From: Candidatus Rokuibacteriota bacterium
GTDB lineage: Bacteria > Methylomirabilota > Methylomirabilia > Rokubacteriales > CSP1-6
Assembly (NCBI GenBank): GCA_016184365.1
Contig: JACPCW010000088.1
Coordinates: 12,068 to 76,067, forward strand
DNA: 64,000 bases
Direction: 5' to 3'
A program made the translations under genes and the position numbers. Below, piece after piece: positions 470-59,574 of this stretch. The notes below the pieces were generated by a model. That model was not told the origin of the DNA. It did not search any database and saw only the letters and a program-made list of their open reading frames with translations. The first letter of the stretch is position 1; each line of letters starts with the position of its first letter.

Positions 470-496
470 GGCGGGCCCGGGGAGGCGAGGCCGGCC

Positions 497-1795: not shown

Positions 1796-2328
1796 TCCAG
1801 GGACGCGTCTGGAAGTTCGGCAGCGACATCAATACGGACCTGATCCTGCCGACGCCGGTGATCTTCAAGCCGCCGGAGGAGCAGCCGCGGTGGGTGTTCT
1901 CCGCCAATCGTCCGGGGTGGGCGCAGGGAGTCCAGCCCGGGGACGTCATCGTGGCCGCGCGCAACTTCGGGACCGGCTCGGGCCGACCCGCCGCGCGAGT
2001 CCTGAAGGACCTCGGGATCGCGTGCGTCGTCGCCGAGTCCATCAACGGGCTGTTCTTCCGCAACTGCGTCAACTACGCGCTTCCGGCGCTCGAGTGCGCC
2101 GGCATCCACGACGCCTTCGACGAGCTGGACGTCGCCGAGATCGATTTCGAGCGCGCCACGGTCCGCAACCGGCGGACCGGACGCGCGCTCGCGGGGCGGC
2201 CGTGGCCGCTCTCGCTGCGCCGGATCCTCGAGGCCGGCGGATTGCTCGCGTTGCTCCGGACGGAGGGCTATCTCGGCCCCGTCGTCGAGAGCGGCACGGT
2301 CGGGACCGCCCCGATGGCTGGTCCCTGA
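1792..2328 (+). CDS. aconitase-family dehydratase small subunit (LeuD/HacB-like)
   Basis: ATGA overlap with the upstream stop. KFGSDINTDLILP and NFGTGSGRP motifs of the swivel domain. Confidence 0.85.
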   Translation: MIQGRVWKFGSDINTDLILPTPVIFKPPEEQPRWVFSANRPGWAQGVQPGDVIVAARNFGTGSGRPAARVLKDLGIACVVAESINGLFFRNCVNYALPALECAGIHDAFDELDVAEIDFERATVRNRRTGRALAGRPWPLSLRRILEAGGLLALLRTEGYLGPVVESGTVGTAPMAGP

Positions 2329-2343
2329 AACGGGAGGCTGCCA

Positions 2344-3984: not shown

Positions 3985-4019
3985 AGCGGACGGCCCCCTG
4001 ACGGGGGCCAGGGGACGGG

Positions 4020-4985: not shown

Positions 4986-4993
4986 CGCGCGCG

Positions 4994-5992: not shown

Positions 5993-6003
5993 GATTCCAC
6001 CGC

Positions 6004-7362: not shown

Positions 7363-7365
7363 ACC

Positions 7366-8250
7366 GTGAGGACATCGACGAGGCTGCGACAGCTCCTCGA
7401 GCAGGGTCTCGTGTTCGCGCCGGGCGTGTACAACGCGATGTTCGCGAAGCTCGTCGAGCACGTCGGGTTCGACGCGGTGTACGTGACCGGCTTCGGAACC
7501 GCGGCCCGGTACGGCTACGCCGACGTCGGGCTCGTCACGCAGACCGAGATGGTCGACAACCTGCGCTACATCTGCCGGGCCACCGGCCTGCCGGTCATCG
7601 CCGACATGGACACGGGCTACGGCAACGTCATCAACCTGCGCCGCACCGTGCGCGAGTACGAGCGCGCGGGCGTCGCCGGCTTCCACATGGAGGACCAGGT
7701 CTTCCCCAAGAAGTGCGGCTTCATGGAGGGCAAGCAGGTGATCCCGATCGAGGAGGCCGTGCAGAAGGTGCGGGCCGCCCTCGACGCGCGCGCCGACCCC
7801 GACACGGTGATGATCGCGCGCACGGACGCGCTCGCGCCGAACGGCTGGGACGACGCGATCCGGCGAGCCCGCGCCTACCGCGAGGCCGGCGCCGACCTGG
7901 TGTTCATGGATGGCATCCGCACCCGCGACGAGCTCGAGACGTACAGCCGCGAGCTCGCGACGAAGGGCGTGCCGTGTCTCTACAACGGCGTCCTGGTGTC
8001 GGCCGCCGAGGCCCAGGCGCTCGGATTCAAGATCCAGATTCTCGCCGGTGCCGCGCTCGCCGCCGTCTGGGCCAGCGCGAACGCCGCGATGGAGGAGCTC
8101 ATGTCGGCGGGCACCGTCGAGCAGGCGATGGCGCGCTACGGCGTTCCGCCCGAGGGCGAGACGTTGACCGACCTCCTCGGAGTGCCGGAGGTCTACGAGC
8201 TCGAGCGGCGGTACGGTCGCTACGAGACGCCGCCGATCGCGGCGCGGTGA
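7366..8250 (+). CDS. ICL/PEPM superfamily protein (alkylmalate/methylisocitrate lyase-like), KKCGF loop type
   Basis: GTG start. DMDTGYGN, EDQVFPKKCGF and ARTDA motifs; tail LLGVPEVYELERRY. Confidence 0.85.
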   Translation: MRTSTRLRQLLEQGLVFAPGVYNAMFAKLVEHVGFDAVYVTGFGTAARYGYADVGLVTQTEMVDNLRYICRATGLPVIADMDTGYGNVINLRRTVREYERAGVAGFHMEDQVFPKKCGFMEGKQVIPIEEAVQKVRAALDARADPDTVMIARTDALAPNGWDDAIRRARAYREAGADLVFMDGIRTRDELETYSRELATKGVPCLYNGVLVSAAEAQALGFKIQILAGAALAAVWASANAAMEELMSAGTVEQAMARYGVPPEGETLTDLLGVPEVYELERRYGRYETPPIAAR

Positions 8251-8264
8251 AGGGGATTCGTGCG

Positions 8265-9140
8265 ATGAGCAAGGGCAAGCAGCTTCGCGAGGCAATGGCG
8301 AACGGGCTCGTCGTCGCCCCGTTCGTCTACGACGGGTTCACGGCGAAGATCGCCCGGCGCCACGGTGCGAAGGCGATCTACATGAGCGGCTTCGGCACCG
8401 CGGCGCAGCTCGGGATGCCGGACGTCGGCCTGACGAGCTTCGCCGAGATGGTCGACAACCTCCGTTACGTCGCCGGCGCCGTCGACGTCCCCGTGATCGC
8501 GGACGCCGACACGGGGTACGGCAATCCCGTCAACGCGCGGCGCACGGTGCGCGAGTACGAGGAAGCGGGCGCGGCCGCGCTCCACCTGGAAGACCAGGTC
8601 TTTCCCAAGAAGTGCGGCTTCTTCGCCGGCAAGCAGGTCGTGCCGAAGGAGGAGCACGTGTACAAGATCCAGGCGGCGCTGGACGCGCGGCAGGACCCCG
8701 AGTTCGTCATCATCGCGCGCACGGACGCGCTCGCCCCGAACGGGTGGCCCGACGCGATCGATCGCTGCCTCGCCTACCACAAGGCCGGCGCCGATCTCGT
8801 CTTCGTGGACGGCATCCGGACGCTCGAGGATCTCGACATCTACCAGCGAGAGCTGGTCGGCCAGGGAGTTGCGTGCCTGTACAACGGCGGGCTCGAGCCG
8901 ACCGCGCGCGTGGCGGCGCGCGGGTTCCGCGTGATGATCACCGGCAGCGCTCACCGCCTCTCGTACGCGGCGTTCCGCCACGCGCTCCTGGAGATCAAGA
9001 GCACCGGCGGCACCGGCCAGCCCCGCAACGCCGATCAGTTCCGCGCGATCACCGACCTCCTGGGCTTGCCGGAGGTGTACGAGCTCGAGCGTCGTTACGC
9101 GAGCGCGGCCTCGGGACCTGGCCGCTCGGAAGGGAGCTGA
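8265..9140 (+). CDS. ICL/PEPM superfamily protein, KKCGF loop type
   Basis: ATG at 8265 inside a longer spurious ORF. DADTGYGN, EDQVFPKKCGF and ARTDA motifs; tail LLGLPEVYELERRY. Confidence 0.85.
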   Translation: MSKGKQLREAMANGLVVAPFVYDGFTAKIARRHGAKAIYMSGFGTAAQLGMPDVGLTSFAEMVDNLRYVAGAVDVPVIADADTGYGNPVNARRTVREYEEAGAAALHLEDQVFPKKCGFFAGKQVVPKEEHVYKIQAALDARQDPEFVIIARTDALAPNGWPDAIDRCLAYHKAGADLVFVDGIRTLEDLDIYQRELVGQGVACLYNGGLEPTARVAARGFRVMITGSAHRLSYAAFRHALLEIKSTGGTGQPRNADQFRAITDLLGLPEVYELERRYASAASGPGRSEGS

Positions 9141-9144
9141 CGTC

Positions 9145-10392
9145 ATGGGTATGACGATCGCGGAGAAGATCCTCGCGGCCCACGCCGGTGTCAACAGCGC
9201 GAAGCCGGGCCAGTACGTCTGGTGCAAGGTCGACGCGACCGGCGGGCACATGCTCCCCGCCCTCGAGCGCCTCGGAGTGGACCGCGTGTGGGACCCGGAG
9301 AAGGTGTTCGTCGTCGACGATCACCAGGCCCCGCCGCCGACGATCGATGCCGCGAACCACGTCAAGAACGTGCGGCGGCTCGTCAAGAAGTACGGGATCA
9401 AAAACTACTTCGAGTACGGGCGGGGCGGCATCCTTCACCAGGTGTTCGCGGAGCACGGCATGTACGCTCCGGGCGATCTGGTCGCCCAGGGCGACTCGCA
9501 CTCGACGTCGGGAGGCGTCTTCAACGCGTGCGTCACCAACGCCGCGCTGGACGGGGTGCACATCCTCGCCTTCGGCGAGCTGTGGTTCCGCGTCCCCGAG
9601 TCGGTGCGCGTGGTGCTGAACGGCACGCTGCCGGCGTGGTGCGTCGGCAAGGACGTCATCCTGAAACTCGCGAGCGAGCTCGGGACCGACTTCGGTCTGT
9701 ACCGGTCCATCGAGTACGTCGGTCCGGTCGCCTCGCAGATGACGCTCGCCCAGCGATGGACCATCACCAACATGGGCGTCGAGGTCGGGGCGAAGTTCGC
9801 CATCTTCGAGGCGGACGAGAAGACGGACGAGTTCCTCCTCGGGCGGGTGAGTCGGCCGTACACGCGCGTCACCGCGGACAGCGATGCGTCGTACGCGGCG
9901 GAGTACGAGTTCGATCTGAGCGACCTCGTCCCGATGGTGGCCCGGCCCGGCGACCCCGGCAACGGGGTGCCCGCGGAGGCGGTCGCCCGCGAGCACGTCA
10001 AGATCGACCAGGCGTTCCTCGGCTCCTGCACCAATGCGCGGCTGGAGGACCTGGAAGTCGCGGCGCGGATCCTGAAGGGAAAGCAGATCCACCCGGACGT
10101 TCGCATGCTGGTGAGCCCGTCCTCGCAGGAGGTCTTCGGGCACGCCTTGAAGGCGGGCTATCTCGGGATCCTCGCGGAGGCTGGCGCGCTCGTGGAGCAC
10201 TCGACGTGCGGCCCTTGCTACGGCGGCCACCTGGGCGTGCTCGGCGACGGCGAGGTCTGCATCTCGACGAGCAACCGCAACTTCCAGGGGCGCATGGGCA
10301 GCCCGCTCGCCAGCGTGTACCTCTCGAGTCCGGCGACCGTCGCGGCGTCGGCGCTCGCGGGCGAGATCGTCGACCCGCGCGCGTACCTGTAG
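9145..10392 (+). CDS. aconitase-family dehydratase large subunit (second LeuC/HacA-like copy)
   Basis: 415 aa. MTIAEKILAAHAG; GSCTNARLEDL; STCGPCYGGHLG; SNRNFQGRMGS. Confidence 0.85.
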   Translation: MGMTIAEKILAAHAGVNSAKPGQYVWCKVDATGGHMLPALERLGVDRVWDPEKVFVVDDHQAPPPTIDAANHVKNVRRLVKKYGIKNYFEYGRGGILHQVFAEHGMYAPGDLVAQGDSHSTSGGVFNACVTNAALDGVHILAFGELWFRVPESVRVVLNGTLPAWCVGKDVILKLASELGTDFGLYRSIEYVGPVASQMTLAQRWTITNMGVEVGAKFAIFEADEKTDEFLLGRVSRPYTRVTADSDASYAAEYEFDLSDLVPMVARPGDPGNGVPAEAVAREHVKIDQAFLGSCTNARLEDLEVAARILKGKQIHPDVRMLVSPSSQEVFGHALKAGYLGILAEAGALVEHSTCGPCYGGHLGVLGDGEVCISTSNRNFQGRMGSPLASVYLSSPATVAASALAGEIVDPRAYL

Positions 10393-10422
10393 AGGCGTTT
10401 TCGAAAACCGAGGAGTGACGCC

Positions 10423-10953
10423 GTGAAAACCGTCTACACCGGCAAGGTCTGGAAGTTCGGCGACAAGATCAGCACGGACCTCATGGTCCCCGGAGCCAAG
10501 GTCCTCGCGCATCCCAACATGAGCCCGCAGGAGGCGGCGCGGTTCTGCATGAGCGCCAACCGCCCGGACTGGGCCGGGACGGTGCAGCCCGGCGACCTCC
10601 TGGTCGGCGGCGTGAACTTCGGTTGCGGTTCCAGCCGCAACGGCTCCGGGCCGCTGAAGGCGCTCGGCATCGCCTGCGTCCTCGCGGAGTCGATCTCGCG
10701 GATCCATCTTCGTAACGCCGTGAACACGGGCCTGCCCACGCTGGTGGCGCCGGGCATCACGAGCTTCGTGGAGGAGGGCCAGCGACTCCGGGTCGACATC
10801 GCCAGCGGCGAGGTGGAGAACCTCGACACCGGCAAGACGATGCGCGTCCAGGGCTGGCCGGCGGACTCGCCGCCCTTCCAGATCCTGATGGCAGGCGGGC
10901 TGGACGAGTTCATGCGGCGCAAGGTTCGCGAGGCCGGCCTGGTCGGGCGGTAG
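10423..10953 (+). CDS. aconitase-family dehydratase small subunit (second LeuD/HacB-like copy)
   Basis: GTG start; KFGDKISTDLMVP and NFGCGSSRNGS motifs. Confidence 0.85.
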   Translation: MKTVYTGKVWKFGDKISTDLMVPGAKVLAHPNMSPQEAARFCMSANRPDWAGTVQPGDLLVGGVNFGCGSSRNGSGPLKALGIACVLAESISRIHLRNAVNTGLPTLVAPGITSFVEEGQRLRVDIASGEVENLDTGKTMRVQGWPADSPPFQILMAGGLDEFMRRKVREAGLVGR

Positions 10954-11062
10954 ACCAGCCGAATCCCTGCCCGAGCCTGCGGCGGCCGACCAAGGAGATG
11001 TTGCAGAGCGCCTCGCGCCCCGCCGCCAGGCCGTGCTCGACGAACCAGCCACATCTAGGGGG

Positions 11063-11097
11063 TTGACCGTAAATGGTCTTATGGATATAACCATAAG
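11063..11097 (+). promoter_or_regulatory. sigma-70-like promoter TTGACC-N17-TATAAC overlapped by inverted repeat CTTATGG-N6-CCATAAG
   Basis: This is the only strongly AT-rich patch in the region. The -10 ends 11 nt before the gntR-family ATG, giving a very short leader or none. The palindrome at 11078-11097 is a candidate autoregulatory operator. Confidence 0.5.
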
Positions 11098-11102
11098 CCG
11101 TC

Positions 11103-11855
11103 ATGGCCGCCAGCGACGTCCGGTTCGACGACGCGACGCCCCTGCACCTGCAGCTCCGGAATCTCGTGCGCTCATCGATCGAGGCCATCGAGCACTCGCC
11201 GGGAAGCCGGCTACCGCCGGAGCGCACGCTCGCCGAGATGTACGGCGTCAGCCGTATCACGGTGCGCCAGGCGCTCGACGCACTCGCGCGCGAAGGGCTC
11301 GTGCGCCGGGGACGCGGACGGGGCGGCGGCACGTTCGTGCAGGACCACGACGGCACGGCGGGCCGGCCGAAGGTGGCGGGTTCGTTCGGCGCGTTGTATT
11401 CCTCGCGGCAGATCGAGCGTGTCGACATTCTCACATTCGCGCGGCGGGCATCGAGCGGTGAGGTGAGCACCGCGCTGGGTCTCGCGCCGGGAAGCGAGGT
11501 CCGGTACATCGAGCGCCTGTTCATCGCGCCGCGAGGCCCGTTGGCCCACGTCCGCAGCTTCCTGCCGCCGCCGATCGGCGACCGCCTCCGGCGTTCCGAG
11601 CTGCGGACGATGATGCTCCACGAGGCGCTCGTCCGGCGTCATCGCGTCAAGATCAGCGAGGCGCGCGACGAGATCGAGGCCGCCCTGGCCGACAGCGTCG
11701 CGGCGCGGCTGCTCGACGTGGAGCTCGGGCGCGCGCTCGTCCGCGTGCGCCGTGTCCTGGTGGGGCGGGGCGACAAGCCGATTGCCCTCTCGCTCATGGT
11801 GATCGCCACGCATCGGTATCAGCTCGTCATCCGCCATCCCGCGTCGCGCGAATAG
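11103..11855 (+). CDS. GntR family transcriptional regulator (HutC-like, UTRA effector domain)
   Basis: HTH ERTLAEMYGVSRITVRQALDALAREGLVRRGRGRGGGTFV followed by a ~150-aa effector domain. Confidence 0.85.
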   Translation: MAASDVRFDDATPLHLQLRNLVRSSIEAIEHSPGSRLPPERTLAEMYGVSRITVRQALDALAREGLVRRGRGRGGGTFVQDHDGTAGRPKVAGSFGALYSSRQIERVDILTFARRASSGEVSTALGLAPGSEVRYIERLFIAPRGPLAHVRSFLPPPIGDRLRRSELRTMMLHEALVRRHRVKISEARDEIEAALADSVAARLLDVELGRALVRVRRVLVGRGDKPIALSLMVIATHRYQLVIRHPASRE

Positions 11856-11914
11856 AACTCACACGGAAAGCCAGGCCCCATGAAGAAATCGACCGTGCCG
11901 CGCGCGCTGTTCCA

Positions 11915-12080
11915 GGGGAACGAACGAGTTACGTCGACCGCACCCGCGACCACCCGCTCGGCAGCTTCCGGGTCTTCGATCTGACGGGATTTGCGAAGGT
12001 GCGCGAATGGCAGCAACGGTATCTGTCTCCTGAGAAGGCTGGCGAAGTACGACCAGTCGATCGGCGCCTACGAACCCTGA
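11915..12080 (+). pseudogene. frameshifted C-terminal remnant of an ICL/PEPM paralog
   Basis: Translates to GERTSYVDRTRDHPLGSFRVFDLTGFAKVREWQQRYLSPEK. After a +1 shift it continues LAKYDQSIGAYEP-stop. This matches the tail of the CDS at 2-469 nearly residue for residue. Confidence 0.75.
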
Positions 12081-12095
12081 GAGGGGAGCGACAAC

Positions 12096-12974
12096 ATGAC
12101 GAACGGTCCTCGTGCGCTCCGCACCCTGCTGGCCGGCCCCGACGTCGTCGTGGCCCCCGGCTGCTACGACGCGTTTTCCGCGGTCGTGGCGCGAGAAGCG
12201 GGCTTCAACGCCGTCTACATGTCGGGCGGGCTGTCGGCCACGTCACTGTGCGGGATGGGTGACATCGGCATCCGCACGCTGTCCGAGCTCGTGCTGCAGG
12301 CGCGCCACATCTGCAACGTCGTCGACGTGCCGGTGATCGCCGACGGCGACGCCGGCTACGGTGGCCCGGTGAACACGTTCCGCCTGATCCGCGACCTCGA
12401 GGACGCGGGCGTCGCCGGCCTGCACCTCGAGGACCAAGACCTGCCCCGCCGCTGCGGCCATCTCTCGGGCAAGCGCCTGGTGTCCGCGGACGAGCACGTG
12501 CTGCGGATCCGCGCCGCCGTCGACGCGCGACGCAACCCCGACTTCGTGATCATCGCGCGGACCGATGCCGTCGCGGTGACGGGGCTGGACGACGCGATCG
12601 CGCGTGCCCAGCGGTACGTGGAAGCGGGCGCCGACGTGGCGTTCATCGAGGCGCTCGAGACGCGCGAGCAGATGACGCGGGCGATCCGCGACGTCAAGGC
12701 GCCGCACCTCGCGAACATGGTCGAGGGCGGCAAGACGCCGAACCTGCCCATCCGCGAGCTCGCCGACATCGGCTTCAAGCTCGTGATCTACCCGTGGTCG
12801 GGATTCGGCGCGGCCTTCAAGGCGATGCGCGCCGTGTGGGCCGAGCTCCGGCGCACCGGCACCACTACGGGGTTCGCCGACCGCATGGAGCCGCTGACGG
12901 AATGGTCGGGCCTGCTCCAGACGGACCGGCTGCTGCGCGACTACGAGCGCTACGTCCTGCCGGACGCGCGCTGA
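12096..12974 (+). CDS. ICL/PEPM superfamily lyase with canonical RRCGH catalytic loop (methylisocitrate/dimethylmalate lyase-like)
   Basis: DGDAGYGG, EDQDLPRRCGH and ARTDA motifs. Confidence 0.85.
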   Translation: MTNGPRALRTLLAGPDVVVAPGCYDAFSAVVAREAGFNAVYMSGGLSATSLCGMGDIGIRTLSELVLQARHICNVVDVPVIADGDAGYGGPVNTFRLIRDLEDAGVAGLHLEDQDLPRRCGHLSGKRLVSADEHVLRIRAAVDARRNPDFVIIARTDAVAVTGLDDAIARAQRYVEAGADVAFIEALETREQMTRAIRDVKAPHLANMVEGGKTPNLPIRELADIGFKLVIYPWSGFGAAFKAMRAVWAELRRTGTTTGFADRMEPLTEWSGLLQTDRLLRDYERYVLPDAR

Positions 12975-12978
12975 TCCC

Positions 12979-14757
12979 ATGATTCCAAACCAGGAGAAGT
13001 CGATGGATTCGCATTGCCTGAGCCGCCGCTCGTTCCTCGGACTGGCCCCGTCGATCCTCGGCGCCGCCGCCGTGCCGACCGCGTTCTTCGAGTCCGTCGC
13101 GTCCGCGGCCGTCGCCGGACGCCCAGTGCCGGAGCTGGTGCTGTCGCACCAGACGACGGGCGGCGAGCCCGAGATGGCGCGGAAGCTGTCCGAGGACCTC
13201 GAGAAGCTGGGACTGCGCATGAAGCTGCGCCCGCTGTCGCTGCAGGCCTGGCTCGACGCGATGACCCAGCGCACCTACGGCGACATGACGAACCGCGTGA
13301 AGACGCCGCTCCCGCAGCGCATCGCGGACCCGGAGTCGTTGCTCTTCGAGACGTATCACTCGAGCCAGGCGCAGTCACCGCGGTACAACTTCGGCAACTA
13401 CAAGCAGCCGGAGTTCGACAAGTGGTACGAGCTCCAGGCGCGGGAGTTCGATCCCAAGAAGCGACTCGAGTACATCGGCCGAGCGGCGAACGTCATCGGC
13501 GCCGACTACTTCGACTGCTTCCGCGGCAACGGCCCCAGCGTGCTCCACGTCTACAACAAGGACTGGACGGGCGGGATCGGCACCGCCGGCTACGGGCTCG
13601 CCGGAACGGCCTTCAACTGGACGTGGCCGCTCATCCGCTCGGCATCGGGCAAGCGCCGCGTGGTGGTGGGACAGCCGAGCATGCGCGCGCACACCAACCC
13701 GTTCGCACCGGACGGATGGTCGTACGAAGGGCAGTACGTCTTCGACCGGCTCGCCACCCTCGACGAGAACCTCAAGATCATCCCGTGGGCGCTCGAGTCG
13801 TTCGGCTCGAAGGACGCCGTCACGTGGGACGTCGTGCTGCGGCGCGGCATGAAGTGGCACGACGGGCGGCCGGTGACGGTGGACGATCTCAAGTGGACGT
13901 TCGACTTCATCCTGGCGCACAAGCCGTCGTTCTTCTCGCCGGTGTGGGACAACGTCGCATCCGTGACGGTCACCGATCCGGCCAGGCAGGCCGTGCGCAT
14001 CGTGTGCAAGCAGCCGTACGCGTCGTTCCCCGCCGCGGTGCTCGTCTTCACGTCGCTCTATCCCCGCCACGTCATCGAGCCGATGATGCGCGAGCAGGGC
14101 GTGAGCAAGCCGCACGAGCTGCGCTTCGAGTCGCGGCACGTCGTCGGCAGCGGGTTTTTCAAGCTCAAGCGGTACACGCGCGACGTCGAGATGGTCTACG
14201 AGGCGAACAAGGACCACTGGTTTGCGCCGAAGGGCGTCGACGAGTTGGTGTGGAAGGTCGTCCGCACCGTCGACGCGATGATGGGCCAGCTCCAGAACCG
14301 CGAGATCGACTTCGCGTACATGAGCTTCACGCCGAGCCAGGTCAAGGAGCTGCTCAAGAGCCCGTACCTGGCCGTCAAGGAGCATCCGACGACGGCGGCG
14401 CCGTACTACACGTTCCGGATCGACCAGCTCCCGTGGCGCGACATCGAGTTCCGGAAGGCCTTCCACTGGTCCGTCGACCGCAACTACCAGGTGCAGGTGA
14501 TGTGGGAAGGCGCCGGGCGCGTGGTCACGGAGGATTCGGTGTTCGTCCCGAGCCATCCCTTCTACACGCCCGTCGAGACCAAGCACGGCTACGACCTCCA
14601 GCGCGCCCGGCAGATCCTGAAGGACGCCGGCTACACGTGGGACGGGAGCGGCCGACTGGTTCTTCCGGTGGACGGCGATCCGAACTTCCGCAAGCGGGTG
14701 AACGACGTGGTGATTCAGTACCCGGGACAGAAGAACCTCTACGCGCCGGTGCTGTAG
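12979..14757 (+). CDS. ABC transporter substrate-binding protein, family 5, with Tat-type signal
   Basis: SRRSFLGLAP twin-arginine motif and VVLRRGMKWHDGRPVTVDDL family-5 core. Alternative start at 13003. Confidence 0.8.
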   Translation: MIPNQEKSMDSHCLSRRSFLGLAPSILGAAAVPTAFFESVASAAVAGRPVPELVLSHQTTGGEPEMARKLSEDLEKLGLRMKLRPLSLQAWLDAMTQRTYGDMTNRVKTPLPQRIADPESLLFETYHSSQAQSPRYNFGNYKQPEFDKWYELQAREFDPKKRLEYIGRAANVIGADYFDCFRGNGPSVLHVYNKDWTGGIGTAGYGLAGTAFNWTWPLIRSASGKRRVVVGQPSMRAHTNPFAPDGWSYEGQYVFDRLATLDENLKIIPWALESFGSKDAVTWDVVLRRGMKWHDGRPVTVDDLKWTFDFILAHKPSFFSPVWDNVASVTVTDPARQAVRIVCKQPYASFPAAVLVFTSLYPRHVIEPMMREQGVSKPHELRFESRHVVGSGFFKLKRYTRDVEMVYEANKDHWFAPKGVDELVWKVVRTVDAMMGQLQNREIDFAYMSFTPSQVKELLKSPYLAVKEHPTTAAPYYTFRIDQLPWRDIEFRKAFHWSVDRNYQVQVMWEGAGRVVTEDSVFVPSHPFYTPVETKHGYDLQRARQILKDAGYTWDGSGRLVLPVDGDPNFRKRVNDVVIQYPGQKNLYAPVL

Positions 14758-14769
14758 GACGCGCCCGCG

Positions 14770-15753
14770 GTGAGACGGTTCCTTGCCGCGCGGATCCTTC
14801 TCATGGGGTTCGTGCTGTTCATGATCGCCACGCTCATGTTCGGGATGTTCGTGCTGCTGCCCGGCGATCCGGCGGCGAGCTTCGTCGAGGAGGGGCTGTC
14901 GCGGAAGGCCCTCGAGCGCCAGCGGGAGCTGTGGGGCCTCGACGCGCCGCTCCACGTCCAGTACCTGCGCTATCTCGGCAACGTGGCGACGCTGGAGTTC
15001 GGCGTCTCGTTCCGCGCGCAGGTGCCGGTGCGCGAGGTGCTGGTCGAGAAGTTCCTGAACTCGATCGCGATGATGCTGCCGGCGCTGATCCTCATCATGG
15101 TGGGCGGCACGGTGATCGGCGCGTACCTCGGCTGGCGGCGCGGCACGGCCGTCGAGAAGACGGCCGTGCTCGCCGGTCTCGCCGTGGAGTCCATGCCGTC
15201 GTTCTTCGCCGGCATCGTGATGCTGATGCTGTTCTCGTATGGCCTCGGATGGCTGCCGTCGTCGGGGATGGGGCCGTCGGGCTCCGGCGGCTCGTTCGTG
15301 GCGACGGTCTTTTCGAGCGACTTCCCGCGTTACGCCGCGCTGCCCGTCCTCACGCTCGCCGTCCGCGGCGTGAACGGCCCGATGCTGCTGATGCGGACGA
15401 GCATGATCGAGATCCGCGGCTCGGACTTCCTCATGCTGCTGGAGGCGAAAGGCGTGTCCGAGCTGCGGATCGTCCGGCACGCGGTGCGGAACGCGATCCT
15501 GCCGATGATCACGTACTTCGGCGTGCTGATCGGGACGCTCTTCCAGGGCCAGGTGCTGCTCGAGACGGTGTTCGGGTGGCCGGGCATCGGGCGCGCGGTC
15601 GTAGATGCGCTCGCCGCGCGCGACTTCCCCGTCCTCCAGGGCGCGTTCTTCTTCACCGCTATCGTCGTCGTCGGCATGAACCTGGTGGTCGACGTCCTCT
15701 ACGGCTACCTCGATCCGCGCGTCCGGGTGACCGGGGACGAGGTCCGCGCGTGA
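14770..15753 (+). CDS. ABC transporter permease (DppB-like)
   Basis: GTG start, 327 aa, multi-TM. Confidence 0.85.
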   Translation: MRRFLAARILLMGFVLFMIATLMFGMFVLLPGDPAASFVEEGLSRKALERQRELWGLDAPLHVQYLRYLGNVATLEFGVSFRAQVPVREVLVEKFLNSIAMMLPALILIMVGGTVIGAYLGWRRGTAVEKTAVLAGLAVESMPSFFAGIVMLMLFSYGLGWLPSSGMGPSGSGGSFVATVFSSDFPRYAALPVLTLAVRGVNGPMLLMRTSMIEIRGSDFLMLLEAKGVSELRIVRHAVRNAILPMITYFGVLIGTLFQGQVLLETVFGWPGIGRAVVDALAARDFPVLQGAFFFTAIVVVGMNLVVDVLYGYLDPRVRVTGDEVRA

Positions 15754-16613
15754 CCCGTCGCGTGCTCGCCGGCAGCCGCGCGCTCGTCGGTGACCCGCTG
15801 ACGGCCGTCGCGTCGGTGGGGCTCGCCGTCTTCGTGCTCCTCGCCGTTTTCGGCCCCTCGCTCGCGCCGCACAAGCCGTTCGAGACGCTGTCGGACGCCG
15901 GCGGACTCCCGCTTCGTCTGAAGGCGCCCGGACCCGGGCACTGGCTCGGCACGACGACGCGCGGGCACGACGTGCTCTCGCAGATGATGCATGGCGCCCG
16001 CATCGCGTTCATCGTGGGCGTGATGTCGGCCGTGGTCGCGGGCCTGATCGGCGCCGCGATCGGGCTGCTGTCCGGCTACTACGGGCGCACCGTGGACCAG
16101 GTGCTCATGCGGCTGACCGATGTCGCGTTCGGGATTCCGACGCTTCCGTTCGCCCTCATCGTCGTCGGCATCCTCGGGCCCGGCGTGCTCAACACCATCG
16201 CCGTCATCGCCGCCATCCTCTGGCGCACGCAGGCGCGCGTGATCCGCTCTCAGGTGCTGACCATCAAGGAGCGGGCGTACATCCGCGCCGCGCGGATCGC
16301 CGGCGCCGGACACGGACGCATCATGCTGCTCCACATCGGGCCGAACATCCTGCCGTTCCTGCTGCTCTACCTGGCGCTCTCCGTCGCGCAGAGCGTGCTG
16401 CTCGAGGCCGGGCTGAGCTTCCTCGGCTTCAGCGACCCGCGCGTCATCACGTGGGGCGGGATGCTGAACGCCGCGTTCGAGGCCGGCGCGGTCCGGACGG
16501 CGTGGTGGTGGGTGCTGCCGCCGGGCCTCGCGCTGTCCGTTGTCGTCGTGTCCTCGTTCGTCGTCGTCCGGCAGTTCGAGGAAGCCGTCAACCCCCGGCT
16601 GCGGACGGTCTGA
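15750..16613 (+). CDS. ABC transporter permease (DppC-like)
   Basis: GTGA overlap with the upstream stop. GTTTRGHDVLSQMMHGARIAF motif. Embedded in a long spurious ORF. Confidence 0.85.
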   Translation: MTRRVLAGSRALVGDPLTAVASVGLAVFVLLAVFGPSLAPHKPFETLSDAGGLPLRLKAPGPGHWLGTTTRGHDVLSQMMHGARIAFIVGVMSAVVAGLIGAAIGLLSGYYGRTVDQVLMRLTDVAFGIPTLPFALIVVGILGPGVLNTIAVIAAILWRTQARVIRSQVLTIKERAYIRAARIAGAGHGRIMLLHIGPNILPFLLLYLALSVAQSVLLEAGLSFLGFSDPRVITWGGMLNAAFEAGAVRTAWWWVLPPGLALSVVVVSSFVVVRQFEEAVNPRLRTV

Positions 16614-16614
16614 G

Positions 16615-17622
16615 ATGCCGCTCCTCGCGATCGAGCGCCTGCGCGTCGAGTACCAGACGCGCGCCGGGGTCGCCCGCGCCCTCGACGACGTGTCGCTGAC
16701 GCTCGGCGACAACGAGTGCCTCGGGCTCGTCGGTGAATCCGGATGCGGCAAGAGCACGCTGGCGCTCGCCGTGCTGCGGGTCCTGCCGCCGAACGGACGG
16801 ATCGCGTCGGGTCGCATCGTGCTCGATGGAACGGACGTCACCGTGCTGTCGCCGCGTGAGCTGCGCCGGCTCCGGTGGGAGCGGATGGCGCTCGTGCCTC
16901 AGAGCTCGATGAACGCGCTCGATCCCGTGTACCGGATCGGCGGCCAGATCGCGGAAGCGATCCGCGCCCATCGCTCGACCCCGGCGGTCGAGGCACGCCG
17001 AGCCGCGGGTGACCTGCTCGCGCTCACCGAGGTGCATCGCGAGCGGATCGACCACTACCCGCACGAGCTGAGCGGCGGCACCCGGCAGCGCGTCGCCATC
17101 GCGATGGCGCTGGCGCTTGGCCCCGCGCTGCTCGTCGCCGACGAGCCGACGACCGGCCTCGACGTGATCGTGCAGGACCAGATCCTGCGACGCCTGCGCG
17201 AGCTGCGGCGCGACCGCGGGATGGCGGTGCTGCTCATCACGCACGACATGGGCGTCGTCGCCGAGAACTGCGACCGGGTCGCGGTGATGTACTCCGGCCG
17301 CGTGGTGGAGCAGGGCGCCGTGGGGCCCGTGTTCGCGGAACCTCTCCACCCGTACACGATGGGCCTGCGCAACGCGTTCCCGAACCTCCTCGCCGACGCG
17401 GCGGAGCTGATCTCCATTCCGGGCAGCCCGCCGAACCTCGTCGAGCCGCCCGCCGGCTGCCGCTTCGCGGACCGATGCCCGTTCGTGCTGGAGCGCTGCC
17501 GGACGACCGACCCTCCGCTCGTGGAAGGCGCGCCCGGTCACTGGACGGCCTGCCTGCGATGGCGCGAAGCAGACGAGCTCCGCGGGAGGGCTCGATCCGG
17601 AGCGACATGGCAGACCGCGTGA
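16615..17622 (+). CDS. ABC transporter ATP-binding protein (DppD/OppD-like)
   Basis: Walker A GESGCGKST, signature LSGGTRQR, and a C-terminal oligopeptide-type extension with CRFADRCP. Confidence 0.9.
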   Translation: MPLLAIERLRVEYQTRAGVARALDDVSLTLGDNECLGLVGESGCGKSTLALAVLRVLPPNGRIASGRIVLDGTDVTVLSPRELRRLRWERMALVPQSSMNALDPVYRIGGQIAEAIRAHRSTPAVEARRAAGDLLALTEVHRERIDHYPHELSGGTRQRVAIAMALALGPALLVADEPTTGLDVIVQDQILRRLRELRRDRGMAVLLITHDMGVVAENCDRVAVMYSGRVVEQGAVGPVFAEPLHPYTMGLRNAFPNLLADAAELISIPGSPPNLVEPPAGCRFADRCPFVLERCRTTDPPLVEGAPGHWTACLRWREADELRGRARSGATWQTA

Positions 17623-18659
17623 TCATCAGCGTGCGCGACCTGCGCGTCTGGTTCCCCGTGCGCCGCACGTTCGTCGACGCCGTTCTGCGGGGCGGGTCCG
17701 GCCGGTTCCTGCGCGCCGTCGACGGCGTGAGCTTCGACCTCCGTCCCGGCGAGATCCTCGGGCTCGCCGGCGAGAGCGGCTGCGGCAAGAGCACGCTCGC
17801 GATGACGCTGCTCGGCCTGAACCGCCCGACGGCGGGTCGCGTCGAGTTTCTTGGCGAGGACCTCACGACATGGATCGCGACGAAACCCGACACGTTTCGT
17901 CGCTCGGCGCAGCTCGTCTTCCAGGATCCGTACGAGTCGCTCAACCCGCGATTCACGGTGGGCCAGACCGTGGAGGAGCCGCTGGTCATCCACGGGCTCG
18001 ATGACGCGACGGGGCGCCGCCGCTGCGCTGCGGAAACGCTCGAGCTCGCCGGGCTGACGCCCGCGCGGCAGTTCCTGCCGCTCTACCCGCATCAGCTGAG
18101 CGGCGGCCAGCGGCAGCGCATCGCGCTCGCCCGCGCCGTGGTGCTGCGGCCGCGGTTCCTCGTCACCGACGAGCCAGTCTCGATGCTGGACGTGTCGGTG
18201 CGCGCGGGAATCCTGCGACTGCTGAAGTCGTTCGCGCGCGATCTGGGCGTGGCGATCCTCTACATCAGCCACGATCTGTCGACGATGAGGCACATCTCCG
18301 ACCGGATCGCCGTGATGTACCTCGGCCGGATCGTGGAGCTCGCCGCGGCCGATGCGATCGTGAGCCGGCCCCGGCATCCCTATACGCAGGCGCTCATGGC
18401 GTCCGTGCCGATCCCGGATCCGGCGCGCCGTCGCGTGCCGCCGCGGATCGATGGGAGCATCCCGAGTCCGATCGGCGAGTTCGCGGGCTGTGCGTTCGCC
18501 AGCCGCTGCCCGCACGTGATGGACGTCTGCCGGCACACCGTGCCGGCGTTGCGCCCGGTCGGGGCTGGTCATGCCGCCGCGTGTCATCTGCACGACGTCA
18601 CTCCCGCCGAGGCGGGAATCTCGAAAGGAGAAACGAATGACCCTGTTGTCCAGAGGTGA
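17607..18659 (+). CDS. ABC transporter ATP-binding protein (DppF/OppF-like)
   Basis: Walker A GESGCGKST, signature LSGGQRQR, C-terminal CAFASRCP. Confidence 0.9.
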   Translation: MADRVIISVRDLRVWFPVRRTFVDAVLRGGSGRFLRAVDGVSFDLRPGEILGLAGESGCGKSTLAMTLLGLNRPTAGRVEFLGEDLTTWIATKPDTFRRSAQLVFQDPYESLNPRFTVGQTVEEPLVIHGLDDATGRRRCAAETLELAGLTPARQFLPLYPHQLSGGQRQRIALARAVVLRPRFLVTDEPVSMLDVSVRAGILRLLKSFARDLGVAILYISHDLSTMRHISDRIAVMYLGRIVELAAADAIVSRPRHPYTQALMASVPIPDPARRRVPPRIDGSIPSPIGEFAGCAFASRCPHVMDVCRHTVPALRPVGAGHAAACHLHDVTPAEAGISKGETNDPVVQR

Positions 18660-19593
18660 ACAGCTGCGCGCATTGATCGAACGCCCGGAGATCCTGGTGA
18701 TGCCCGGCTGCGCCAACGCGCTGCAAGCCGTGATGATCGAGAAGGCCGGGTTCGAGGCGGCCTACATGTCCGGCGCCGCCACGGCGGCGAATCTCATCGG
18801 CATGCCGGACGCCGGCTTCACGAGCCTGACCGAAGTGGTCATGAATGCGCGGTACATCGCGGGCGCCATCAACCTCCCGCTGCTGGCCGACTCGGACACC
18901 GGGTACGGCAACGCCGTCAACGTGCGCCGTACCGTCCACGAGTTCATCAGGGCCGGCGTGGGTGGTATCCACATCGAGGACCAGGTGTTCCCGAAGCGCT
19001 GCGGGTTTGTCTCGGGGAAGGAGGTCGTCCCGATCGGGGAGGCGGTGGGCAAGTATCGCGCCGCCGTCGCCGCGCGCGACGAGCTCGATCCCGGGTTCGT
19101 GATCATCGCGCGCACCGATGCCCGCACCGCGGTGGGCGGCGGGCTCGAGGAAGCGATCACGCGGGCCAAGGCGTACCGGGCGGCCGGGGCCGACGTGGCC
19201 TATTTCGAGGCGCCGCAGTCCGTCGACGAGATCAAGGCGTTCGTGGCCGAGGTCAAGGGCCCGGTCATGGCCACGCTGGTCGCGCTCGACCCGGCACCGA
19301 CGTGGGAGGAGCTCGAGTCCCTCGGCGTCAGCGTCGCGTTCTATCCCGCCCACGGCATGATGGCCGGCAACGTCGCCAACTGGGACTTCCTGCAGGACTT
19401 CAGGAAGCGCGGCCCGCAGGCGGAAGCGGAGCTGAAGGCGCGGACGAAGGGGCATCCGGTCGCCGGGTTCGCGCTCTTCGACCTCGTCGGGTTCCCGAAA
19501 GTGCGCGAGATGGAGGAGCGCTACCTGCCGGTCGAGCACCGGGAGAAGTACGAGCGGTCGACCGGAATGTACACGCCAGGGAGGACGTCGTGA
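18637..19593 (+). CDS. ICL/PEPM superfamily protein, KRCGF loop type
   Basis: AAAGGAG Shine-Dalgarno before ATG 18637. DSDTGYGN, EDQVFPKRCGF and ARTDA motifs; tail FDLVGFPKVREMEERYLP. Confidence 0.85.
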   Translation: MTLLSRGEQLRALIERPEILVMPGCANALQAVMIEKAGFEAAYMSGAATAANLIGMPDAGFTSLTEVVMNARYIAGAINLPLLADSDTGYGNAVNVRRTVHEFIRAGVGGIHIEDQVFPKRCGFVSGKEVVPIGEAVGKYRAAVAARDELDPGFVIIARTDARTAVGGGLEEAITRAKAYRAAGADVAYFEAPQSVDEIKAFVAEVKGPVMATLVALDPAPTWEELESLGVSVAFYPAHGMMAGNVANWDFLQDFRKRGPQAEAELKARTKGHPVAGFALFDLVGFPKVREMEERYLPVEHREKYERSTGMYTPGRTS

Positions 19594-20552
19594 GACGGAC
19601 AACACAGCTCAGACGGCTGCTCGATCGCGGCGAGCTCATGGTCGCTCCGCTCGCCGATTGTGCGTACACCGCGAAGATCATCGAGGCGGCCGGCTTCCCG
19701 GCGGTGTACCTCTCGGGCGGCGGCACGGCGGGCACACTCTTCGGGGTGCCCGACGCGGGACTCGTCACCTCGAGCGAGACGATGATGGCCGCGCGCCTCA
19801 TGGTCAACGCGGTCAACGTCCCGGTGATCGTCGACGCCGACACGGCGTACGGCAACGCGGTCATCGCCACGCGGACGGCGCGCGATCTCATCCAGGCGGG
19901 CGCCGCCGCGATGCAGATCGAAGACCAAGTGACGCCGAAACGGTGCGGCTGGGTGGCGGGCAAGGAACTCGTTCCGCTCGACGAAGCGGTCGGCAAGCTG
20001 CGCGCTGCCGCCGACGTCCGGAAGGCGCTCGATCCGGACTTCGTCATCGTCGCACGCACCGACGCCCGCGGCGCCGTTGGTGGTGGTCTGGACGAGGCGC
20101 TTCGCCGTGGCCAAGCGTACGTCCAGGCCGGCGCCGACCTGGTGTTCGTCGAAGGCCTGCGGTCCGCGGCCGAACTCGACGCCGTGATCCAGGGCATTCC
20201 GGGTGCGCATCTGAACTGGTCATACGATCTCGACGTCGACGAGGTTCAGCGGCGCGGGCTGAAGGTGTTGCTGTTCAGCGGCGCGGCCGCTGCCGGGCGC
20301 CGAGCGATCTGGGATTTCGTCCACGATCTGCGCCAGCGAGGGACCCAGGCACATCGCGCGCTTCGGGACGTGCAGCGCGGCCATCCGCTCGGGTCGCTCG
20401 AGGCGAACTTCGCGTTCCTCGGGTTCGGCGCGATCCGCGAGTGGGAGGAGCGCTATCTCCCCAAAGAAGCGAACGGCAGCAAATACGAGGAGTCGCTCGG
20501 GTGGCGGCCAACCCGCTTCGGCGCCGCAGGCGGTGCCTCGACGACGCCTTGA
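19590..20552 (+). CDS. ICL/PEPM superfamily protein, KRCGW loop type
   Basis: GTGA overlap with the upstream stop. DADTAYGN, EDQVTPKRCGW and ARTDA motifs; tail FLGFGAIREWEERYLP. Confidence 0.85.
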   Translation: MRRTTQLRRLLDRGELMVAPLADCAYTAKIIEAAGFPAVYLSGGGTAGTLFGVPDAGLVTSSETMMAARLMVNAVNVPVIVDADTAYGNAVIATRTARDLIQAGAAAMQIEDQVTPKRCGWVAGKELVPLDEAVGKLRAAADVRKALDPDFVIVARTDARGAVGGGLDEALRRGQAYVQAGADLVFVEGLRSAAELDAVIQGIPGAHLNWSYDLDVDEVQRRGLKVLLFSGAAAAGRRAIWDFVHDLRQRGTQAHRALRDVQRGHPLGSLEANFAFLGFGAIREWEERYLPKEANGSKYEESLGWRPTRFGAAGGASTTP

Positions 20553-21899: not shown

Positions 21900-22499
21900 C
21901 TACGTTCCGCGTTCCTTCTCGCCGTACGCGAATGCCTCGACGAGGACAGGATCCCGCTTCAGGCGCTCGTCCACTTCGACACCGAGCCCGTTGGCCATGC
22001 GACAACGCAGTGCGTAGTAGGCGGTGACCATCACGATCTCGAAGATCTGCTCGTCGGAGAACCCCGCTTGACGGAGCGTTTCGACATCGTCCTTGGTCGC
22101 CCGGTTCGGGTTCAGCGCAAGGAGCTCGACGTGGGCCAGCATGGCCCGCTCCGCGGGTGCGAGAGGTAGGTCTCGCCAGTTCTGGGCCAGGGTGAGCACC
22201 TGTTCCGTGTCGCCTCCGATGACCTGACGGAGAGCCTCTCCGTGAGCGGTCGTTCAGTAGGCGCAGCGGTGCAGCGCCGAGGTCAGGACGGCGATCATCT
22301 CCTGACGGCGCTTACCCAGGGCACAATGCGGGCCGCGGAGCGCCTGGAGAAGCTCGGCCAGCGCGACCATCACGCGCGGGTTGATGCTCGCGGCCGCAGC
22401 GATGTTCGACACGGAGCCATTCAGTTTCCTGATGGTCGTGTACGCTTCTGCCGCGTCGTCCGTAGCCTCCGCTTCTGGAACGGTCTTGATCCAGGTCAT
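21900..22499 (-). CDS. AhpD-like/carboxymuconolactone decarboxylase family protein with in-frame UGA (candidate selenocysteine, CxxU)
   Basis: Two same-frame ORFs (22254-22505 and 21900-22199) are joined by one TGA at 22254-22256. The read-through gives LHRCAY-U-TTAHGE, matching the family signature CxYCxxxH. GAGGAG Shine-Dalgarno 7 nt before ATG 22499. Confidence 0.7.
22227..22243 (-). promoter_or_regulatory. candidate bacterial SECIS hairpin (17 nt)
   Basis: ACGGAGA-GGC-TCTCCGT begins 10 nt after the UGA. A flanking GACC/GGTC pair could extend the stem. Confidence 0.55.
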
Positions 22500-22551
22500 C
22501 GCCACTCTCCTCGAAATGGGTTCTGGACCGACAATTGGTCGGGACGACCGC

Positions 22552-58050: not shown

Positions 58051-58155
58051 GAACACGCCCTCGAGCTGTTCGCGTCCATCTACGGCGCCGAGGCGGGCAA
58101 CGTCGCGCTCAAGGCGCTCGCCGTGGGCGGCGTCTTCGTCGATGGCGGAATCGCA
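58051..58155 (+). pseudogene. glucokinase (Glk) internal fragment
   Basis: [35 protein letters not shown] matches the conserved Glk C-terminal region. There is no N-terminal part and the sequence diverges after GGIA. Confidence 0.6.
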
Positions 58156-58203
58156 CTGAAAAAATCCGCGATGAGCTGTGAACGTCGACGACGGAGGTAG
58201 GGC

Positions 58204-59574
58204 ATGGATCGCTACGATTTGCTCGTGATCGGCGGCGGCGCCGCCGGGATCAATGCACTCAAGCAGGGCTTGAAGCTGGGCGCGCGCGTGGCGCTGATCG
58301 ATTCGGGGCCGCTCGGGGGCGCCTGCATCAACCGCGGGTGAATCCCGAAAAAGACCTTGGTAAGGTCTGCGCGAGTTCATCAGCTGGTACGACACGCGGC
58401 CAACTTCGGCACGAAGACCGGCGCGGTGACGCTCGACTGGGACGCGGTCGTTCGTCGCCAGCGCGAGATCGTTCGCGAGCTCCAGCCGCCCCCCGCCGCG
58501 TTCGAGCGCTCGGGCGCCAGGGTCTACCTCGCCGACGCGCGCTTCGTGGACGCCCATACCGTCCGGGCGAACGGCGCGAGCGTCCAGGGCGACAAGATCG
58601 TCATCGCCGCCGGCTCCGAGCCCGTGGTGCCGGCGGTGGCCGGGCGCGACCTTGCGATCACCTCCGACGAGATCCTCTTCCTGCCGACGTTCCCCGAGAG
58701 CCTGGTGCTGGTGGGCGCCGGCGTCATCGGGCTGGAGATGGCGGGCGCCTTCGCCGACCTCGGCTCGCGCGTGACCGTGATCGGCCGCGACCCTGAAATC
58801 CTACCGGCGTTCGACCGCGATGTCGCCGCCTACATCCGGACGATCCTCGAGGGCCGGGGCGTGACCTTCTACCTCGGCGCGTCGCTCGAGCGGCTCTCGG
58901 GCACGACCGGCGCAGTGACGGCCCACGTCAAGCGGGACGGTCGCGAGCTCGTGGTCACCGCGGCGCAGGTCTGTCTCGCGGTCGGCCGGCGCTACAACCC
59001 GAAGCGCCTGGGGACCGACGCGCTCGGCCTGGTGATGGGGCGGCTCGGCCTCCGCGTGAGCGAGCACCTCAGGACGTCGCTCCCCCACATCTACGCGGCG
59101 GGCGACGCGGCCGGCAACCAGCAACTCACGCCGACCGCGGCGTACGAGGGGAAGCTCGCCGCGCTGAACGCGCTCAAGGGTGACGTCGCCCGTCCCGACT
59201 ACAGCGTCGTGCCGCAGACGATCTTCACCACGCCCGAGATCGGCGGGGTCGGTCTCACCCACGCCGAGGCGCTCGCCCGCGGGGTGAAGTGCCACGTCGC
59301 CACGCACGACATGCGTGGCGCCTCCAACGGGAGGGCCACCGGGGAAGACGCGGGCTATCTCAAGCTCGTGTTCGACGGGGCGACGGAGAAGGTCCTCGGC
59401 GTCCAGATGGTTTCCTACGCCGCCGCCGAACTGATCCAGCTCGCCGCCCTCGCCATCAGGACCGGCGCCGATGCGCACCTCTTGTCGAGCCAGCTCTCGA
59501 TCCACCCGAGCCACGGCGAGCGGTTGATCAAGGTCTTCGGCCACGAGCACCACGAGGTCTGCGAGCCCGAATAG
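58204..59574 (+). CDS. class I pyridine nucleotide-disulfide oxidoreductase (dihydrolipoamide dehydrogenase/mercuric reductase-like) with in-frame UGA at the second active-site Cys (candidate CxxxxU selenoprotein)
   Basis: GGAGGT Shine-Dalgarno. MDRYDLLVIGGGAAG..LGGACINRG-TGA-IPKKTL aligns with the family signature GGxCxNxGCxPxK. The TGA at 58339-58341 is in frame with the 405-aa ORF 58357-59574. Confidence 0.7.
58352..58368 (+). promoter_or_regulatory. candidate bacterial SECIS hairpin (17 nt)
   Basis: AGACCTT-GGT-AAGGTCT begins 10 nt after the UGA. Confidence 0.55.

Follow-up and report, generated by a model that had tools for sequence, protein, structure and literature searches.

Two genes with an in-frame UGA and a downstream hairpin

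We analyzed a 64-kb stretch of a Candidatus Rokuibacteriota contig (JACPCW010000088.1, positions 12,068 to 76,067; 69% G+C), hereafter the window, in which two unrelated genes each carry an in-frame TGA codon followed at close range by a perfect hairpin. Gene A encodes an AhpD-like protein and gene B a class-I pyridine nucleotide-disulfide oxidoreductase, and we consider the hairpins to be candidate bacterial selenocysteine insertion sequence (bSECIS) elements that would direct selenocysteine (Sec) to the UGA codons. Both frames are otherwise open, and the sites lie 36 kb apart on opposite strands. The features are as follows.

58204..59574, + strand: gene B, class-I pyridine nucleotide-disulfide oxidoreductase of 456 codons, with the UGA at codon 46 read through; ends with TAG
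58339..58341, + strand: in-frame UGA, candidate Sec46, aligned with the second Cys of the CxxxxC redox center
58342..58351, + strand: 10-nt spacer (11 nt to the conserved 6-bp core)
58352..58368, + strand: upper hairpin AGACCUU-GGU-AAGGUCU, with the conserved core at 58353-58367
58337..58381, + strand: whole predicted SECIS (centroid structure), with a lower helix (58337-58345/58373-58381) that includes the UGA, an internal loop, and the upper hairpin
21900..22505, − strand: gene A, AhpD-like "peroxidase-related enzyme" (CMD family) of 201 codons, with the UGA at codon 84; ends with TAG
22254..22256, − strand: in-frame UGA, candidate Sec84, aligned with the second Cys of the AhpD CxxC motif
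22244..22253, − strand: 10-nt spacer, constant in length and varying in sequence among homologues (nucleotide diversity, 0.258)
22227..22243, − strand: upper hairpin ACGGAGA-GGC-UCUCCGU
22216..22257, − strand: predicted extended SECIS with lower helices CUGA/UCGG and GACC/GGUC (76-nt fold, −33.5 kcal/mol; z = −2.6)

In gene B, the TGA (58339-58341) leads into the 10-nt spacer ATCCCGAAAA and then into AGACCTT GGT AAGGTCT (58352-58368), and in gene A the TGA (22256-22254) leads into the 10-nt spacer ACGACCGCTC and then into ACGGAGA GGC TCTCCGT (22243-22227). Written out as 17-mers, the hairpins are AGACCUUGGUAAGGUCU and ACGGAGAGGCUCUCCGU. A sequence-only reading of the window had described a 10-nt spacer, a 7-bp stem, and a GGN loop after both UGAs, at sites 36 kb apart on opposite strands and in unrelated genes; its sequences and coordinates were exact, and the placement was confirmed. 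The predicted folding energies are −11.8 and −16.9 kcal/mol for the two 52-nt elements and −6.6 and −8.4 kcal/mol for the bare 17-mers.

Both UGA codons fall at redox cysteine positions. Gene B has Pyr_redox_2 and Pyr_redox_dim domains and an N-terminal GGxCxxxGC-type redox center, in which the motif GGACINRG-U-IPKK aligned to GGTCVNIGCVPSK (GGTCVNIGC) of MerA (PDB 5x1y), placing the U opposite the second Cys. The PDB relatives of gene B, thioredoxin reductase among them, carry Cys at this position. We take the second Cys of the CxxxxC center (compare Cys58/Cys63 of glutathione reductase, and lipoamide dehydrogenase) to be the flavin-proximal, charge-transfer Cys. Translation initiated past the TGA would yield a protein lacking both the flavin adenine dinucleotide (FAD)-binding GGGxxG motif and the first redox Cys, which are encoded upstream of this codon. 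Gene B is about equally similar to lipoamide dehydrogenase, mercuric reductase, and glutathione reductase; it scored below every NCBIfam equivalog cutoff (e.g., 334 versus 408.8, 332 versus 454, and 327 versus 480), and none of the selenoprotein-specific NCBIfam models matched it. Gene A, in turn, matched TIGR01926 with 114.9 bits (cutoff, 81.8), and its HRCAY-U motif (followed by TTAH) aligned to NRCVYC of PDB entries 6k40, 2oyo, and 3c1l, again with the U opposite the second Cys. Both proteins need sequence from both sides of the TGA.

Chance occurrence of the pattern

We estimated how often the strict pattern (TGA, 10 nt, 7-bp stem, and GGN loop) arises by chance from 300 first-order Markov simulations of the window. 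The pattern occurs twice in the window versus a mean of 0.01 in the simulations, and none of the 300 simulations contained two or more instances. The window holds 18 perfect palindromes with a 7-bp stem and a 3-nt loop (36 when oriented on both strands), and 7 of the 36 have a GGN loop. Under a relaxed hairpin model (spacer of 9 to 13 nt, stem of at least 6 bp, and a loop starting with G[G/U]), hairpins followed 11 of the 1,360 TGA triplets of the window, compared with 8.3 ± 2.9 in simulation, which is no enrichment. It follows that a hairpin alone is not diagnostic and becomes meaningful only in its reading-frame context; accordingly, we rejected hairpin-only scanning as a predictor of selenoproteins. 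The combination of a hairpin with long open frames on both sides was found only at these two sites in the window.

Two further palindromes, at 18517-18546 (+) and 18094-18065 (−), are likewise preceded by a TGA and 10 nt and were rejected as chance occurrences. Both lie in an ABC ATPase gene (17475-18659), with their TGAs out of frame or antisense, and their loops, ACC and GAA, are of non-GGN type. Including these two, which we regard as unexplained coincidences without a link to Sec, a TGA lies 13 nt upstream in 4 of the 36 oriented palindromes versus about 0.3 expected. Scans of open frames and of G+C content at third codon positions (GC3) for additional selenoprotein genes in the window yielded candidates that we also rejected: those at 467 and 7360 are gene boundaries, and those at 44977 and 20222 are antisense frames.

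Conservation and covariation in the gene B family

The best 120 database homologues of gene B are almost all fragments of about 405 residues that begin just past the TGA position, and the annotated ones among them are named Candidatus Rokubacteria. For both genes, the relatives that keep TGA and hairpin belong mostly to Candidatus Rokubacteria/Methylomirabilota. The TGA is present at the same codon in a Rokuibacteriota metagenome-assembled genome (MAG) with 93% identity (L001) and in L002, and a Methylomirabilota homologue that is 56% identical to gene B (L003) has Cys at the Sec position and no hairpin. To extend the comparison, metagenome contigs were scanned with a pattern made up of the upstream motif, the TGA, and the four codons that follow it; the hairpin was not part of the pattern. 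The pattern was found in at least 120 soil or groundwater contigs representing at least 85 unique contexts. All family counts given below refer to the matches listed, among which 75 of the 85 unique contexts belong to a Rokubacteria-type "U-IPKK" reductase family. These 75 unique sequences served for the stem and loop statistics.

Covariation was assessed by direct pair counting rather than with a covariance model, since a register shift between triloops and tetraloops, together with the coding constraint, made counting more informative. Stem pairs 17-27, 18-26, and 20-24 are invariant, and pair 15-29 is G-C in 72 of the 75 sequences. Two pairs show compensatory double changes: pair 16-28 is A-U in 55 sequences, G-C in 16, and G-U in 4, and pair 19-25 is U-A in 69 and C-G in 6. 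The outermost A-U pair (14-30) is found in only 40% of the sequences, and the conserved core is consequently a 6-bp stem beginning 11 nt past the UGA. Overall, stems in the family span 5 to 7 bp and loops 3 to 4 nt, with the loop sequences GGU (59 sequences), GGUC (15), and CGUG (1). In the GGUC forms (GGCCUU-GGUC-AAGGCC and GGCCCU-GGUC-AGGGCC) the stem has been rebuilt with its register shifted by one, which needs coordinated Thr-to-Ala, Arg-to-Lys, and Ser-to-Ala replacements and one synonymous change.

Synonymous variation is suppressed in the stem. Third-codon-position entropy is 0 to 0.18 at stem sites versus about 0.9 to 1.7 at most flanking sites. In gene B itself the stem uses codons of low frequency in this genome (TTG, 4%; GTA, 1.3%; AGG, 5.7%; TCT, 2.8%), and the probability of this codon string given the peptide is 3 × 10−7.

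The hairpin is also tied to the TGA. As a control, we used Cys-type homologues from a contig scan with a peptide pattern, in which 77 of 80 loci were distant Cys-type reductases and 45 had a recognizable CxxxxC motif. With a hairpin defined as at least 5 bp with a G in the first two loop positions and located 9 to 13 nt downstream, 77 of the 85 TGA-type contexts had one, compared with 0 of the 45 Cys-type homologues.

Several contigs depart from this family pattern. An 80%-identical homologue (L212 366-368; ENA ERZ27286489 k141_6349957; protein P0002) has TTA, a very rare Leu codon, at the Sec position with the hairpin intact; a null allele or a sequencing error is the probable explanation. 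A second reductase subfamily with the motif FGGTCVN[AT]G-U-IPTK and a TGA at the second redox Cys was found on contigs L097, L122, L137, L143, L146, L182, and L195. The hairpins of this "U-IPTK" subfamily differ, examples being CCCUGGUG-GCUAG-CGCCAGGG at 13 nt and GGCGCU-GGUCGCG-AGCGCC at 11 nt, suggesting that more than one reductase lineage gained Sec at the second redox Cys, by separate origin or by spread. Two low-GC contigs (L087 and L127) carry a glutathione-reductase-like gene with KLGGTCVNVG*VPKK, in which a TGA occupies the same Cys position and no hairpin follows; this gene could be eukaryotic, with a SECIS in the 3′ untranslated region (3′-UTR), or use a different genetic code.

Conservation of the gene A element

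The database homologues of gene A are all fragments split at the TGA. The TGA is kept in nine distinct homologues with 60 to 78% amino acid identity to the query. The 17-nt hairpin is identical in eight of the nine, and the GGC loop is present in all of them. Nucleotide diversity among these homologues is 0.013 in the hairpin versus 0.26 in the spacer and 0.29 downstream, and at third codon positions it is 0 in the hairpin versus 0.32 to 0.47 in the flanks. The rare codons GGA, GCT, and CGT are retained within the hairpin. Judged by these diversities, the gene A hairpin is under strong constraint at the RNA level.

In one gene A homologue (L206/L207), a further in-frame stop lies upstream (GKRR*EM), and a G-to-A change disrupts the 3′ arm of the hairpin; this copy is probably decaying and losing its SECIS.

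Candidate selenoprotein genes on related contigs

Related high-GC contigs contain other genes with an in-frame TGA and a downstream hairpin, as follows.

L129 (− strand, TGA at 2216) and L205 (− strand, TGA at 728): PrdB-like; spacer of 10 nt, stem of 8 bp, loop GUC
L201: CMD/YciW-like; spacer of 12 nt, stem of 9 bp, loop GGUCA
L210: CMD; spacer of 12 nt, stem of 8 bp, loop CGUGGC
L213: deiodinase-like; spacer of 12 nt, stem of 7 bp, loop GGCC

On these contigs, the spacer thus ranges from 10 to 12 nt, the stem from 7 to 9 bp, and the loop from 3 to 6 nt. Given these other geometries, it is partly coincidental that the two window elements agree exactly at 10/7/3, within what is a narrow range for the lineage. 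The identical geometry to which the sequence-only reading drew attention is hence exact in the window, yet it is not the conserved unit, which in the gene B family is the 6-bp core at 11 nt.

The PrdB-like genes (D-proline/glycine reductase B family) of L129 and L205 have a UxxC motif, and the stem changes between the two loci are compensatory. In L205, and probably also in L203, the PrdB-like gene lies beside an AhpD-like gene, and L129 is a reductase locus. A tblastn search of the window found no homologue of the PrdB-like genes or of the extra CMD genes of the related contigs. Selenoprotein models labeled "GroundWater" exist in NCBIfam, one of which matched a neighboring CMD gene.

Contig L210 (982-1983; JGI Ga0494960_00038415) holds a continuous frame with a deiodinase-like thioredoxin-fold domain (LIEFGSIT*PMT) and an AhpD-like domain (HRCAY*TT), which would make it a double-Sec fusion. 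The first stop (1168-1170), at the canonical deiodinase Sec position, is a TAA, followed by 12 nt and an intact GGGGCCC-GGCC-GGGCCUC hairpin. We rejected recoding of UAA as Sec here, because the same hairpin follows a TGA in the close homologue on L213; a point mutation or a sequencing error most likely accounts for the TAA.

Comparison with known SECIS elements and selenoproteins

Bacterial SECIS elements have been modeled as an apical loop of 3 to 9 nt on an upper stem of 4 to 16 bp, with 16 to 37 nt between the UGA and the loop, a minimum free energy of at most −7.5 kcal/mol, and at least one G in the first two loop positions, usually as G[G/U] (PMC13188914). Compared with this bSECISearch-type consensus, both elements lie within all stated limits (3-nt loop, 7-bp stem, GG, 17 nt from UGA to loop, and the folding energy of the 52-nt element), at its compact extreme: the loop is the shortest allowed and the spacing nearly so.

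The minimal SECIS of Escherichia coli fdhF consists of an upper stem-loop of 17 nt placed 11 nt past the UGA, and its key nucleotides are U17, G23, and U24 (PMC8659212, PMC11431864). The account of this element in the sequence-only reading (a stem-loop of about 17 nt, a distance of about 11 nt, and G/U in the loop) was correct. The fdhF element itself, a UGA followed by 11 nt and GGUUGCAGGUCUGCACC with a GGUC loop, is 100% identical in 5,413 E. coli genomes. As in fdhF, the window elements lie in the coding region directly past the UGA, and the predicted lower helix includes the UGA. The core of the gene B family also begins 11 nt past the UGA and has a GGU(C) loop, the tetraloop of its relatives being GGUC as in fdhF. 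Unlike in fdhF, both stems are perfect Watson-Crick helices of 6 to 7 bp, the bulged U17 is absent from all homologues, in gene B the G-G-U stands at positions 21 to 23 instead of 22 to 24, and most sequences have a triloop and not a tetraloop.

AhpD-like CxxU selenoproteins (TIGR01926/COG2128) were first described from the Sargasso Sea metagenome (PMC1088965; Table 1 of PMC13188914). Gene A shares with this family the TIGR01926 match and the U in place of the second Cys of CxxC, and differs in coming from a terrestrial or groundwater lineage of the Rokubacteria type. Gene B has the fold of mammalian thioredoxin reductase and the same N-terminal CxxxxC center next to the FAD. In the mammalian enzyme, however, the N-terminal center has Cys, and Sec is located in a C-terminal GCUG motif served by a eukaryotic SECIS in the 3′-UTR, whereas the candidate Sec of gene B would occupy the second, flavin-proximal position of the N-terminal center and be specified by an in-frame bacterial SECIS.

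Sec insertion and alternative explanations

We interpret both hairpins as putative bSECIS elements inside the coding regions of two selenoprotein genes of the Candidatus Rokubacteria/Methylomirabilota type, a reading to which we assign a probability of about 0.88. Judged from their sequences, genes A and B are real but misannotated selenoprotein genes, and the mechanism is known and of the ordinary bacterial kind. By analogy with E. coli, the ribosome would bring the UGA into its A site, at which point any lower helix containing the UGA would already have melted, and the upper hairpin, 10 to 11 nt downstream, would be placed at the mRNA entrance. There the C-terminal winged-helix domain of SelB would bind the G-G/U apical loop and, competing with release factor 2, deliver Sec-tRNASec to the UGA. 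Sec would thereby replace the second Cys, giving CxxxxU in the disulfide reductase and CxxU in the AhpD-like protein. The identification of the hairpins as SECIS elements at redox Cys positions, already made in the sequence-only reading, is borne out by the conservation of TGA and hairpin, the compensatory changes, the suppressed synonymous variation, and the count of 0 of 45 in Cys-type homologues.

Several observations weigh against this interpretation. ARAGORN found no tRNASec in the 64-kb window or in about 210 homologue loci, and no selA, selB, or selD gene was present among the 20 Pfam-annotated genes of the window or in the homologue loci. Support from the Sec machinery is for this reason at the phylum level only and comes from the literature: the passage of PMC13188914 that cites Deng et al. 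gives 63 predicted selenoprotein genes for a Methylomirabilota MAG, and Sec-type group 4 hydrogenases are present in Methylomirabilota (PMC13582414). We infer that selABCD are present in this genome. Neither hairpin matched Rfam at gathering or permissive thresholds, and no Rfam model fits them. Both elements have a 3-nt loop, the lower limit of the bSECIS model, and no bulged U; the GGC loop of gene A, moreover, differs from fdhF in having no U where it is important in E. coli. The gene A hairpin is invariant and hence shows no covariation. The lower helices are less convincing than the upper hairpins: that of gene B (UGAAUCC/GGAUUCA) is 69 to 100% paired and mostly invariant or changed on one side only, which is weaker support than that for its upper hairpin, and those of gene A are weakly supported, with GACC/GGUC becoming GACG/CGUC in L208 and the lower part varying among homologues. 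Finally, the support for Sec insertion is sequence based.

The only serious rival is that the same SECIS-type hairpins recode UGA as Cys by means of SelC*/tRNA-ReC and a SelB-like factor. Nothing in the window separates Sec from Cys delivery, and a tRNA-ReC system that uses a downstream SECIS does exist (PMC13582414); tRNA-ReC-like genes occur in several soil and groundwater phyla according to the passage of that article citing Vargas-Rodriguez et al. 2018. We nevertheless consider Cys recoding improbable. No tRNA-ReC was found in the window or in the homologue loci, and its reported frequency among non-UxxU Sec-type genomes is only about 2% (PMC13582414). The literature portrays the Methylomirabilota as users of Sec whose predicted selenoproteomes are large (PMC13188914), and the AhpD-like CxxU, PrdB UxxC, and deiodinase-like proteins belong to established Sec families (PMC1088965). 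That such families on related contigs repeat the same design also speaks against a second possibility, in which the hairpins would stimulate read-through or pausing independently of SelB (with near-cognate Trp, Cys, or Arg) or stabilize the mRNA for reasons unrelated to Sec. Downstream structures can stimulate read-through in other systems, but Trp or Arg in place of the redox-active Cys would inactivate both enzymes, and a G-G/U loop at a fixed distance from the UGA is a signature of SelB recognition and not of generic stability (PMC13188914, PMC8659212). This makes a SelB-independent role quite unlikely.

The remaining explanations dispense with programmed recoding at the two sites. Nonsense mutations or sequencing errors beside coincidental palindromes would agree with the public annotation of both genes as truncated fragments, and individual contigs with TTA or TAA at a Sec position are evidence that such changes or errors arise. 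Such an origin is scarcely credible given that the TGA is conserved at the same codon in at least 85 independent contexts for gene B and 9 for gene A, with purifying selection on both sides, on homologous contigs that are not clonal (identities of 60 to 94%); this conservation effectively refutes it. Furthermore, the hairpin goes with the TGA and is absent from all 45 Cys forms, and the strict pattern is expected 0.01 times per window. An alternative genetic code with TGA as a sense codon throughout the genome has a negligible probability, with only the two in-frame TGAs in its favor. Of the 41 high-GC3 open reading frames (ORFs) in the window, 26 end with TGA; as the main stop codon there, it is not reassigned genome-wide, and stop codon usage thus refutes this idea. 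A scan for other in-frame TGAs with a coding signal on both sides gave only gene boundaries.

Other observations in the window

Genes A and B both end with TAG (21900-21902 and 59572-59574, respectively), versus TGA in 26 of the 41 ORFs of the window. In a sample of two genes the difference may be due to chance; another possibility is that Sec genes avoid a second UGA. Just upstream of gene B, a stretch at 58070-58200 (+) encodes about 40 residues resembling the C terminus of glucokinase, with no intact N-terminal part, and is probably a gene remnant.

At the other end of the window, the region 77-19600 (+) contains repeated large subunits of the aconitase/isopropylmalate dehydratase type (497-1795 and 9145-10392), genes of the PEP-mutase/isocitrate-lyase family (7366-8250, 12096-12974, and 18571-19593), and several peptide-type ABC transporter genes. 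These assignments were made by eye from N-terminal sequences only, and the repeats suggest paralogous catabolic cassettes.

Novelty and significance

The mechanism and the AhpD-like family are known, and the elements described here are new, unannotated members. A keyword search for a class-I disulfide reductase with CxxxxU found no entry in the 2022 and 2026 reviews (for one review table, in the part covered), BSepDB, or deep-Sep, nor in the GOS, Sargasso Sea, and Olavius papers. We tentatively suggest, at somewhat less than even odds, that gene B represents an uncatalogued and widespread selenoprotein family and that the Rokubacteria-type SelB reads an unusually compact, bulge-free SECIS. Such a SECIS may be common to unrelated genes, with a G-G/U-N triloop or tetraloop on a stem of 6 to 8 bp located 10 to 12 nt from the UGA. 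The suggestion that the family is new is guarded because the groundwater MAG survey may already list it.

For enzymology, if the flavin-proximal member of the active-site pair carries selenium, the reductase would offer an unusual natural experiment in flavin-selenolate chemistry. For the study of SelB recognition, the compact, bulge-free hairpins form a clean natural data set that includes both covariation and the register-shifted GGUC variant. Genes A and B and well over a hundred homologues currently stand in public databases as truncated fragments without FAD-binding or redox motifs. Recognition of the SECIS elements restores full-length redox enzymes in an abundant, uncultured phylum of soil and groundwater whose selenoproteome is reportedly of record size. 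If the compact SECIS design is true of the lineage, the large selenoproteomes that have been reported from the phylum could be predicted genome-wide by simple means.

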